Part shown: in pieces, positions 51,015 through 53,756 of the stretch
Layout: each line of letters starts with the position of its first letter
How positions within the stretch are numbered: position 1 is the first letter of the stretch
From: Chlamydiia bacterium
Lineage (GTDB): Bacteria; Chlamydiota; Chlamydiia; Chlamydiales; GCA-2402025
Reading direction: 5' to 3'
Assembly: GCA_022601395.1 (NCBI GenBank)
Contig: JAJACS010000003.1
Coordinates: forward strand, 43,702-107,701
Length of the DNA: 64,000 nt
The notes under the pieces: generated by a model
Databases searched by the model: none
What the model saw: the letters and a program-made list of their open reading frames with translations, nothing else
What the model was told of the DNA's origin: nothing
Made by a program: the position numbers and the translations under genes

Positions 51015-51321
51015 GTTATTACTCCACTGGGTTTATTATTACTATTCTGTTTTTACGTGCATTTTACTTAACGTAACAACTCTACAAGTTAATTATATCA
51101 GTATTTTAAAATTATTTATACTGATTTTAAAAATGCATATAACTTACAATAAGCAACTTACGCATAGCGAATGTATATTCAATAAAAACAATTTAATAAT
51201 CAATAAGTTACGTAATAAAAACTCTTAAAAAACCCAATATTATTATAGTAATTTTTTCAAAATGGATACTATTTTGAAAATTCCAGATATTTATTCGCAA
51301 AAAAAACCGGTTGATTCTTTG

Positions 51322-51494
51322 TCTAATCACAGCTTTATTCGGAGGTAGACCCTGTATGATTTCAGGGGCTACAGGAGCTATGGCTGTTGTCGCTGTTTCT
51401 CTTGTTTCTCTTGTTTCTCTTTATGGCGTACAGTATCTATTTGCAAGGATCGTACTTACTGGTGTTTTTCAGATACTCATCGGTATTTTTCGAC
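51322..51494 (+). pseudogene. sulP relic (internal fragment, codons ~56-110 of the intact gene)
   Basis: It matches 53592-53756 with 2 substitutions plus a 9-nt tandem insertion (SLV repeated). It lacks the start codon and first ~55 codons, and ends at the duplication junction. Confidence 0.85.
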
Positions 51495-53756
51495 ATGGAC
51501 CAAATGTACCTTAGACCATCTTAAGCTCATAAGTCACTTTTACGATCTCCATCTGCCATCTGCTCTACCTTCTCTATTAGCAGTATGTACTAAACTTGGA
51601 AGGTCTCGTTCGTAAATCGTATCAACAATTGCAACTTCTGGTCTTGTTACGCCTGCATATACATTTGTTGTTACGCTTTCCCCTCCTCTTAACGCAGATC
51701 CTGATAGAGAGGCTTGATCTGTCTCTCCGATTTCAGTAGCAATTATAGAGCCCACCTCACCAAGTGCTCCAAGTAATCCACCCATTACCGCTGCTCTACC
51801 AGCTGCCTCAGTTGAATCTCCAATGATTTCACCAAGAACAAGTGCTGGAGCTTTTCTACGGCTTACTCCATTTGCAACAGCACCGGCCACACCAACGCCA
51901 ACGAGCACTCCCCCAGCTGCGATTGCTGGAGTTGCCATGCCTGCAGACCCTACTTCTGCTGCAATAACAGTACTTACAAGAGTTCCTACACCAACTTTAA
52001 GACAAGCCGAGGCAAATTTCTTTCTTGTTTGGTAACTCACATGTCCTGTTTCCATGAACTCTTTTCCTGAGGCTAATTGAGCATCTCTATACTCTTTTGA
52101 CACAGCAAACTTCCCAGTGGCTTTTGTAAGTTGGTACCCTGTAATAAGCGGAGAAAAAACAAGTTCTCCTGTATACTTACCGGCAGCAATAGCTCGCTCT
52201 TTACCTGATCTGTCCTTCCAGTTTTGTATCCCTTCATGAAAGGCTATTGAAAGGGTATCTCTAAAGCCAACGTGTGAATTTATATACTCTTGCACTTCAC
52301 GTCTTGCACCATCTTTATCACCGCTTAGAATCAATTCCATCCATCTGTCTAGTTTCGCTTCAAGATCTGGCTCATCCGCAAGTAAATTTAAGAGAAGATC
52401 AATCTCATATCCTGATAGATCCTTATAAAGGCTTGCAGCTGATTGAGACTCCATGTCACCAAGGTCATCAAATTGAGCCATTAAAGGTACTGTTTCTGAT
52501 CCAGAAGATTCAAAAGAATCATCAAAGACAAATTCGCCTCTTTCTCTATGCATAAGAGATGGAGCAGATCTTGGTCTTCTTTTTGGAGCTACTGATTCTG
52601 TAAAAAATCGAGCTTCATCAGAAATGGATACCTCAGGAGATCTAACTTCTTCCCCCAGTCCGTCATCTTCACTATGATCCTCTATATGAGTTGGTAGAGG
52701 AGTAGGTTTCGAACGTCCTCCAAACAGTCTCGCTGAAACACTTGCTGTTCTTCTGCCTGTGGCAGGAAGCATACTCTCTCTATCACTTTCAAATGTAGGA
52801 TCCAATCCGATTCCCGATTCCGCAGATACAGGTCTATCAGACCCTCTACTTAAAGTACGTACTCTTCCTGATAATGATCGACCCATTTTTGAACTACTAA
52901 CCCTTCTAAAAAACTTCGAAGAAGAGAAACTTCCTTTAGACCCTATACGGCTTACAGATCTTCTACTTCCGCCCAATAAGGTTTCTTGTGCCTGATCCAG
53001 CTCATGTGGTTCATCGACAAAACTTCCTTCTATACTTCCTGCGCCTGCTAAAGCTACATCCATTCCCGTTGCTGACATTTTATTTCTCCATTGGTTTTCT
53101 TATTATTCTATTTTTATGCACATTTTACTTGATGCTACATCTACTTAAGTCAATTATAACAGAGTTTTAAAATAATTTACACTACCTTTGTAAATGCATA
53201 TTACTTATAATAAGCAACTTATGTACTATGTATATATATACAAAAAAAACAGTTTAAAATTCAGTGGGTTACGAAATATAAACACTTAAAAATTCAAAAT
53301 TAATATATTAATTTTCTAAAAATGGATGCGATTGCAGAAAAAGTGGATATTTATCCACATAAAAACCTGGTTGATTCTTTGTTTTTTATTCCATTTTTTC
53401 CTACACTTCGTGGTTTTGGACTCATATGATAAATACTGTTAAGAAGTTCTTGTTACCTACAGAGGGCAAGTGGAGCATTGACCTACTGTCTGGTTTAACT
53501 GTTGCTCTAGCCCTTATTCCAGAAGCGATCGCTTTTGCTCTTGTCGCGCACCTAAATCCTCTTGTTGGACTATACTCAGCATTTTTTCTTTGTCTAATCA
53601 CAGCTTTATTCGGAGGTAGACCCGGTATGATTTCAGGGGCTACAGGAGCTATGGCTGTTGTCGCTGTTTCTCTTGTTTCTCTTTATGGCGTACAGTATCT
53701 ATTTGCAACGATCGTACTTACTGGTGTTTTTCAGATACTCATCGGTATTTTTCGAC
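51495..53756. repeat. segmental duplication, unit 2 (3' flank + paralog B + upstream region + 5' part of intact sulP)
   Basis: See unit 1. Offset between the units is 2205 bp. Confidence 0.85.
51540..53078 (-). CDS. hypothetical Ser/Arg-rich + Gly/Ala-zipper protein, paralog B
   Basis: 512-aa ORF, colinear with paralog A along its whole length except for the single copy of the 45-aa unit. Confidence 0.8.
   Translation of the reverse strand: MSATGMDVALAGAGSIEGSFVDEPHELDQAQETLLGGSRRSVSRIGSKGSFSSSKFFRRVSSSKMGRSLSGRVRTLSRGSDRPVSAESGIGLDPTFESDRESMLPATGRRTASVSARLFGGRSKPTPLPTHIEDHSEDDGLGEEVRSPEVSISDEARFFTESVAPKRRPRSAPSLMHRERGEFVFDDSFESSGSETVPLMAQFDDLGDMESQSAASLYKDLSGYEIDLLLNLLADEPDLEAKLDRWMELILSGDKDGARREVQEYINSHVGFRDTLSIAFHEGIQNWKDRSGKERAIAAGKYTGELVFSPLITGYQLTKATGKFAVSKEYRDAQLASGKEFMETGHVSYQTRKKFASACLKVGVGTLVSTVIAAEVGSAGMATPAIAAGGVLVGVGVAGAVANGVSRRKAPALVLGEIIGDSTEAAGRAAVMGGLLGALGEVGSIIATEIGETDQASLSGSALRGGESVTTNVYAGVTRPEVAIVDTIYERDLPSLVHTANREGRADGRWRS

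Follow-up and report, generated by a model that had tools for sequence, protein, structure and literature searches.

A sulP relic inside a tandem duplication of a sponge-associated chlamydia, and its probable recopying from the live gene

Introduction

Deletions between short direct repeats arise by slipped mispairing or by microhomology-mediated joining, are independent of RecA, and are familiar from the classic lacI deletion spectra. Concerted evolution of gene copies is exemplified by the rRNA operons and the tuf genes. Here, we describe a 180-nt fragment of sulP, the gene of a SulP/SLC26-family anion transporter, on which both processes appear to have left their marks. The fragment (hereafter, the relic) is found in a 64,000-nt stretch of DNA (the window) of a Chlamydiia bacterium, a metagenome-assembled genome (MAG; assembly GCA_022601395.1, contig JAJACS010000003.1). 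It lies between two paralogous minus-strand genes, A and B, which were duplicated in tandem. From this one genome, we infer that the relic was probably recopied from the live sulP gene by recombination (gene conversion) in the recent past, and that it is now decaying.

The locus resembles the partial-gene relics that are left at tandem junctions. The units lie head to tail, the novel junction falls inside sulP, the fragment ends unit 1, and unit 2 continues into the intact gene. The difference is that the sulP relic later lost sequence at its 5' side and was apparently renewed by copying from the live gene. There is ample documentation of gene conversion between bacterial paralogs, including three reports (PMC6053082, PMC8022953, and PMC12046097) on concerted evolution by this route. 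As in those cases, segments are far more alike than their flanks or their age would permit, the short tracts occur in patches that stop where homology stops, and a live gene, here sulP, is the apparent donor. In contrast, the partner in the present locus is a seemingly non-functional, 5'-truncated relic, so selection for identical products cannot contribute, and the case for conversion is drawn from a single genome with no phylogeny. The phenomenon is of a known kind, in which a relic of a tandem duplication, concerted evolution, and a deletion between short repeats come together; it is a product of ordinary genome evolution and not a new system.

Results

A nearly unchanged sulP fragment next to diverged DNA

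The locus is a head-to-tail tandem duplication with approximately 2.2–2.26 kb per unit. The units are collinear and directly oriented, and they are joined by a single novel junction (Table 1). Each contains 45 nt of 3' flank, a minus-strand gene, and a divergent promoter region of ~300–350 nt, and each originally also carried the first 331 nt of sulP. An earlier note on this DNA had described the relic as ~99% identical to live sulP, with two substitutions and a 9-nt tandem insertion that adds SLV. Our alignment agreed: 169 of the 171 positions in the matching sulP segment are identical. The intergenic copies, which were put at about three-quarters identity in the same note, share 223 of 296 positions (75.3%; 73/296 mismatches). 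The coding sequences of A and B, which were said to need many substitutions and indels to align, are 74.8% identical with 189 gap columns. The relic has thus diverged by 1.2%, as compared with 24.7% in the adjoining intergenic copy. At the intergenic mismatch rate, the relic should carry ~42 differences, and a count of two or fewer has a probability of 1.5e-18. Identity along the units is stepwise, confirming that the divergence is uneven, and change-point segmentation with a strict penalty retained a sole strongly supported break, at 51308/51309.

All three differences between the relic and sulP are derived in the relic. The live gene retains the ortholog state at each of these sites, and the extra SLV codons are missing from the sulP orthologs. 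Both substitutions are non-synonymous and fall on residues that are identical in the three orthologs compared, while the number of synonymous differences is zero. The lack of synonymous change, together with the derived state of all three differences, indicates that the relic was recently copied from sulP and then drifted free of constraint. The 9-nt gain is an ordinary slipped-strand repeat expansion, in which one whole unit was added to a pre-existing perfect tandem repeat.

The similarity does not stem from constraint on the donor sequence. Nucleotide identities of the sulP segment with the three nearest orthologs (79.5, 70.8, and 70.2%) match those calculated for the whole gene (80.1, 71.5, and 71.2%), and this excludes nucleotide-level constraint on the segment as a cause. 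Between sulP and its closest known ortholog, the fraction of differing four-fold sites is 0.50. The relic has two of the properties expected of a conversion tract, being less diverged than its flanks and being so for reasons other than constraint. The high-identity tract stops at a homology discontinuity on either side, namely the deletion junction (left) and the duplication junction (right).

Mosaic divergence of paralogs A and B

Nucleotide segmentation revealed further steps within the units. From left to right, identity was 85.6% (49290–49379), 48.7% (49380–49500), 74.5%, 97.4% (50604–50722), 75.2% (50723–51308), and 98.9% (51309–51494). The 85.6% stretch corresponds to the first 90 nt of the units, i.e., the 3' flank and the last 15 codons of the gene. 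We also counted the use of the same codon among residues identical in A and B, for which ~0.36–0.40 is expected at saturation. The C-terminal domain yielded 47%, with 57 of 106 four-fold sites differing (0.54), and this domain is near synonymous saturation. The N-terminal part and the middle gave 76% and 65%, respectively, and 14 of 64 four-fold sites (0.22) differed over the whole N-terminal half, including the 97.4% block. In the block itself (A residues 97–136), same-codon use reached 92%, and none of the 20 four-fold sites differed, as compared with 0.28–0.40 in the flanking sequence. The codon-use contrast between the block and its flanks had a Fisher P value of 0.018.

Expressed as approximate substitutions per site, the relic stands at 0.012, the adjoining intergenic DNA at 0.31, and the synonymous sites of the C-terminal domain at ~1. 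The divergence is a mosaic of three to four age layers within 2.2 kb, and not a matter of two levels. The earlier note had overlooked this mosaic in the rest of the duplication, i.e., the 116-nt block of 97.4% identity, the layer at ~0.3 substitutions per site that comprises the N-terminal half and the intergenic DNA, and the near-saturated C-terminal domain. The A/B mosaic is the main independent argument for conversion, and the 97.4% block suggests that homogenization at the locus was patchy.

The same data bear on one of the three explanations offered in the earlier note, namely that the unknown genes and their promoters evolved at an accelerated rate. Here, the duplication would be recent and of uniform age, A, B, and their promoters having evolved very fast under positive selection and the sulP piece not. 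Over the whole gene, the synonymous divergence (dS) is 0.89 and the non-synonymous divergence (dN) is 0.20. The dN/dS ratio is close to 1 in the disordered N-terminal half, and dN reaches ~0.6 in the last ~60 codons, as rapid protein change would predict. However, the divergence is carried by neutral sites, i.e., by four-fold sites (0.22–0.54) and by 300 nt of AT-rich intergenic DNA that differs uniformly at 25%, so fast protein evolution of A and B cannot explain the similarity of the relic. The dN/dS ratio does not rise above 1 and is far below it in the C-terminal domain. A neutral relic of the same age should carry the ~42 differences calculated above, and it has two. We rejected this explanation, which we find hardly credible.

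The deletion scar and the two-event alternative

The absence of 211 nt from unit 1, the sulP start codon included, had been noticed earlier, together with a direct 8-mer that bounds the gap in the intact copy and persists once at the junction. The missing stretch proved to be exactly 211 nt, and the 8-mer, TTCTTTGT, occupies the positions listed in Table 1. One coordinate required correction, since the matching sulP segment had been given a start at 53592 instead of 53593; the rest of the description stood. The microhomology is exactly 8 nt. Among 200,000 random deletions in the window, microhomology of at least 8 nt occurred at a frequency of 2.5e-4, and the fraction was likewise 2.5e-4 when all endpoint pairs between the intergenic region and sulP were taken. 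Under either of the histories considered below, the 8-mer marks a genuine deletion between short repeats. It conforms to the described type, in that an exact 8-nt repeat flanks the interval, one copy remains, and a few hundred bases were deleted. Nothing about it is unusual, and the ambiguity is just whether the loss amounted to 211 nt or 2.5 kb.

The larger figure belongs to a history of two events without conversion. An old tandem A–B would have been followed by a recent duplication of B plus the 5' part of sulP, giving A–B–relic–B'–sulP. A deletion of ~2.5 kb, running from the TTCTTTGT upstream of A to the TTCTTTGT in the new relic, would then have removed the extra B and fused old intergenic DNA to a young sulP fragment. 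Of the two-event option in the earlier note, only this form is feasible, with a re-duplication that collapsed when 2.5 kb were deleted at the very same 8-mer. It accounts for the sudden rise in identity from 75% to 99% precisely at the 8-mer, for the perfect identity at both edges of the relic, and for the survival of a useless fragment. The near-saturated synonymous sites of the C-terminal domain also fit, as they make A and B far older than the relic sequence. On the other hand, it demands that a rare 8-nt microhomology deletion strike a duplication with two identical 2.2-kb copies. An identical tandem duplication of this size normally collapses by RecA recombination and leaves no trace. The 97.4% intragenic block would remain unexplained, as would the 85.6% identity of the first 90 nt beside a stretch of 48.7%, and more independent events are required. 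We regard this history as unlikely.

The three-way choice in the earlier note between conversion, accelerated evolution, and two events holds, and conversion is the best supported of its members. We favor the conversion history over the two-event one, with confidence somewhat better than even, on three grounds. The second near-identical patch is not explicable by re-duplication, the two-event history needs a rare 8-nt-mediated deletion within 2.2 kb of perfect homology, and conversion between nearby bacterial paralogs is common.

According to the conversion history, a head-to-tail duplication of ~2.26 kb would have taken in three elements: an orphan gene for a membrane protein, the divergent promoter region of this gene, and the 5'-terminal 331 nt of sulP. 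A promoter-proximal piece of sulP would thereby have come to lie between A and B. The relic and the adjoining intergenic DNA would have been made together. As the units diverged unevenly, homologous recombination between them may have overwritten short patches. Later recombination with live sulP would have overwritten the relic alone, either by gene conversion or by two unequal crossovers, placed differently within relic and sulP, which yield the same product. The 5' end of the fragment, 211 nt, was probably lost via slipped mispairing or microhomology joining between the two TTCTTTGT 8-mers, and we can only deduce the order of this deletion and the conversion. The last recopying from live sulP appears very recent, ~0.012 substitutions per site ago. 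The two replacements and the 9-nt slippage expansion would have been acquired after this last homogenization.

Several points weigh against the conversion history. The locus is seen in one genome only. The relic matches sulP perfectly at both of its edges, over 38 nt at the left end and 47 nt at the right. If an old relic had been converted repeatedly, older and more diverged anchors might have been left there, and a fresh copy is the simpler explanation for sharp edges. A useless fragment must also have persisted since at least the intermediate layer (~0.3 substitutions per site) despite the usual deletion bias. Finally, the conversion-tract evidence for the 97.4% block is moderate, given the Fisher P value above and the strong conservation of the encoded peptide.

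Coding capacity of the relic

By nucleotide homology, the relic is a sulP-derived fragment, and tblastn matched it to sulP amino acids 55–112. It is not a functional SulP/SLC26 member, as the ATG and codons 1–53 are deleted and everything beyond codon 110 is absent; four fifths of the gene are missing. Its open reading frame (ORF) aligned with PF00916 at profile positions 42–104 only, of ~380, and the score of 21.3 bits lies below the cut-off of 23.2.

We considered whether the relic is functional and selection keeps its likeness to sulP. The product would be a two-helix peptide of 52–67 amino acids, encoded by the ORF at 51311–51514 or starting at an internal ATG (51357) with GGAGG ahead, or else a transcript from the duplicated sulP promoter, antisense into the 3' end of B. 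A 67-codon frame (51311–51514) does continue across the duplication junction, and the duplicated promoter region is still present upstream. Selection on a peptide cannot hold synonymous sites, yet no synonymous difference was found; both substitutions hit residues identical in the three orthologs, three residues were inserted, and the original start codon and leader were deleted. There was no credible Rfam match (48500–55500), and the minus-strand RNA across the relic folded no better than shuffled sequences (z = -0.74). No sigma-70-like promoter was found on the plus strand at 51015–51320, and the promoter scan gave fewer consensus matches than shuffles did; this is weak evidence, since the scan is uninformative for a chlamydial genome. 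The palindrome located upstream of live sulP has degenerated in unit 1. A functional relic is quite improbable on these data. We give even slightly less credence to the specific case of a duplicated sulP promoter that still fires into the relic, yielding a SulP-derived two-helix membrane peptide (52–67 aa) or a transcript convergent into the 3' end of B. If this were true, the relic would couple a gene pair of the host-interaction type to the control signals of an anion transporter, and repeated conversion from sulP would keep the module current. The relic is best described as a decaying pseudogene fragment, apparently devoid of function, that has evolved without constraint since its last homogenization.

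Assembly support and searches in other genomes

The relic might also be an artifact, produced by a mis-join or by mis-recruitment of reads at a repeat in a short-read metagenome assembly. The source is indeed a MAG, and the two public assemblies probably come from the same reads. Nevertheless, no assembler would invent the unique sequence of the two junctions and of the three differences specific to the relic, and flanking units of just 75% identity are not collapsible or confusable. The locus structure is identical in JAHZIS010119041.1 (GCA_022599615.1, "Chlamydiia bacterium S4CHLAM37") and in a separately deposited metagenome scaffold of the European Nucleotide Archive (ENA). The latter is 99.985% identical over 13.3 kb and agrees base for base across the locus. 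We consider an artifact very improbable. The lone difference between assemblies is the number of CA units at 48929–48935 (CACACAC vs. CACAC), far from the relic; it could be an assembly error or dinucleotide slippage in the population. This difference frameshifts a small minus-strand gene, which has 100 aa from a GTG in the window and 117 aa from an ATG in the ENA scaffold. The accession prefix of the MAG is contained in a paper on sponge-associated chlamydiae (PMC9666466).

A scan of genome contigs with sulP gave no second genome with the locus, and a scan with a four-sequence family alignment returned one unrelated MAG without sulP nearby. Exact searching for the duplication junction in metagenome contigs yielded 0 matches. 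Altogether, neither the A/B pair nor the junction was found in another genome or metagenome contig by protein, HMMER, contig, or junction searches.

Features of the locus

The coordinates are collected in Table 1. No further copy of the unit was detected in the 64-kb window. The duplication junction shows no exact microhomology, just an imperfect (A/T)TGG; a 13/21 similarity to its left was not considered meaningful. Tandem repeats at the locus are nested, with units of 9 nt, 135 nt, and 2.2 kb. Outside the left boundary, an unannotated 26-codon hydrophobic ORF, MKWTMWIIFGVIALIAIAFLYVYCTS (49126–49206), is preceded by AAAGGAG and followed by the hairpin at 49237–49266.

Table 1. Positions of the sulP relic, its deletion scar, and the surrounding duplicated features in the window
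Feature	Position	Strand	Basis or remark
sulP relic, equivalent to codons 54–110, without start codon	51315–51494	+	169/171 identical to 53586–53756, plus 9-nt insertion
Relic substitution G>T, Gly67Cys equivalent	51353 (T) vs. 53624 (G)	+	derived; GGN in all three orthologs
Relic substitution C>G, Thr95Arg equivalent	51447 (G) vs. 53709 (C)	+	derived; ACN in all three orthologs
9-nt repeat array GTTTCTCTT, adds SLV	51394–51421 (3.1 copies) vs. 53665–53683 (2.1 copies)	+	TRF
TTCTTTGT, left copy in intact unit (sulP 5' leader)	53375–53382	+	unit alignment
TTCTTTGT, right copy in intact unit (sulP codons 54–56)	53586–53593	+	unit alignment
TTCTTTGT, single copy kept at deletion junction	51315–51322	+	unit alignment
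211 nt missing from unit 1 (leader, ATG at 53426, codons 1–53, part of 54–56)	53383–53593	+	unit alignment
Unit 1 (3' flank, paralog A, intergenic copy, truncated sulP relic)	49290–51494		homology to unit 2: 49290 with 51495, 51494 with 53756
Unit 2 (3' flank, paralog B, intact intergenic region, first 110 codons of live sulP)	51495–53756		unit alignment
Duplication junction (sulP 53756 joined to 49290)	51494/51495		...TTTTTCGAC/ATGGACCAAATG; CGAC/ATGG; three-way comparison of junction, sulP, and A flank
Intergenic copy of unit 1	51015–51314		75.3% identical to 53079–53374
Second near-identical block in paralogs	50604–50722 vs. 52659–52774 (116 nt)	-	97.4%; encodes MLPATGRRTASVSAR(I/L)FGGRSKPTPLPTHIEDHSE (also written MLPATGRRTASVSAR.FGGRSKPTPLPTHIEDHSE)
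Paralog A, 559 aa; disordered Ser/Arg-rich N-terminal half, helical C-terminal domain with adjacent hydrophobic segments	49335–51014	-	predicted
Paralog B, 512 aa (annotated 507 aa, S4CHLAM37_04490)	51540–53078	-	sequence
Live sulP, SulP/SLC26-family anion transporter, 515 aa	53426–54973	+	PF00916 E = 7e-58, plus STAS domain
Terminator-like hairpin, bidirectional, strong	49237–49266		directly outside left duplication boundary

The live sulP gene

Homologs of sulP number in the thousands, the top match being 89% identical. The closest orthologs (89–80% aa identity) are non-syntenic and have wholly different neighbors, which indicates that sulP has no fixed location in related chlamydiae; one of these orthologs adjoins transposase genes. 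At 68 nt ahead of the start of live sulP, we noted a palindrome, GTGGATATTTATCCAC (53343–53358), whose 6-nt inverted-repeat arms (GTGGAT/ATCCAC) enclose a spacer of 4 nt. Its counterpart in unit 1 (51283–51298) reads CCAGATATTTATTCGC. The palindrome was not found upstream of sulP in the other loci fetched, and it may be a candidate operator.

The paralogous proteins A and B

Pfam revealed no domain in A or B. Approximately 200 N-terminal residues are predicted to be disordered, and the C-terminal part is helical in a low-confidence model of paralog B (pLDDT 37). Kyte–Doolittle windows above 1.4 begin at residues 400–410 and 422–433 of A and at 355–362 and 376–388 of B, and a third hydrophobic region follows this adjacent pair. 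A word-indexed search with B among 5.8 billion proteins returned A and B alone, and a full HMMER search added just distant homologs of the C-terminal domain. This domain defines a small family without a Pfam model, comprising distant metagenome homologs and a third member in the same MAG, S4CHLAM37_01980, which is encoded on another contig and is 37–40% identical to A and B. The third paralog was ruled out as an ectopic conversion donor for the old C-terminal layer, its identity (37–40%) being too low. One homolog of the C-terminal domain occurs on contigs binned as "Candidatus Aerophobetes NORP81", where a binning error is possible.

Within the 97.4% block, we observed an RRxS-type basic motif and a proline-rich stretch amid the fast-evolving disordered region. 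Speculatively, the block may represent a short linear motif cassette common to the paralogs. Paralog A also contains an internal tandem duplication of 135 nt (45 aa; 50302–50552) with 82% identity and the motif ...MPREAGEQVFTFD..., which is present as a single copy in B.

Chlamydial inclusion-membrane (Inc) proteins are characterized by a bilobed hydrophobic domain of ~40–60 residues, by type III secretion, and by placement in the inclusion membrane. A and B resemble them in several respects. They are lineage-restricted, have no Pfam domain, and show a disordered N-terminal region and two adjacent hydrophobic segments (A ~400–452); moreover, they belong to a chlamydial genome and are duplicated in tandem. 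In A and B, by contrast, the hydrophobic pair is situated in the C-terminal third and a third hydrophobic stretch comes after it. At the level of the predicted proteins, this is a resemblance only.

Conclusions

The practical value of the locus is limited. It is a clean example of tandem duplication, short-repeat deletion, and patchy homogenization in an uncultured sponge-associated chlamydia. For annotation, 51315–51494 is a pseudogene fragment, and calling it a gene is inappropriate. Because a stretch of 2.2 kb combines three to four layers of different age, the divergence of tandem paralogs in this genome is unusable as a clock. If A and B prove to be secreted host-interaction proteins, the 116-nt block would suggest the exchange of a motif-bearing cassette between them, which would be of modest interest for effector evolution.

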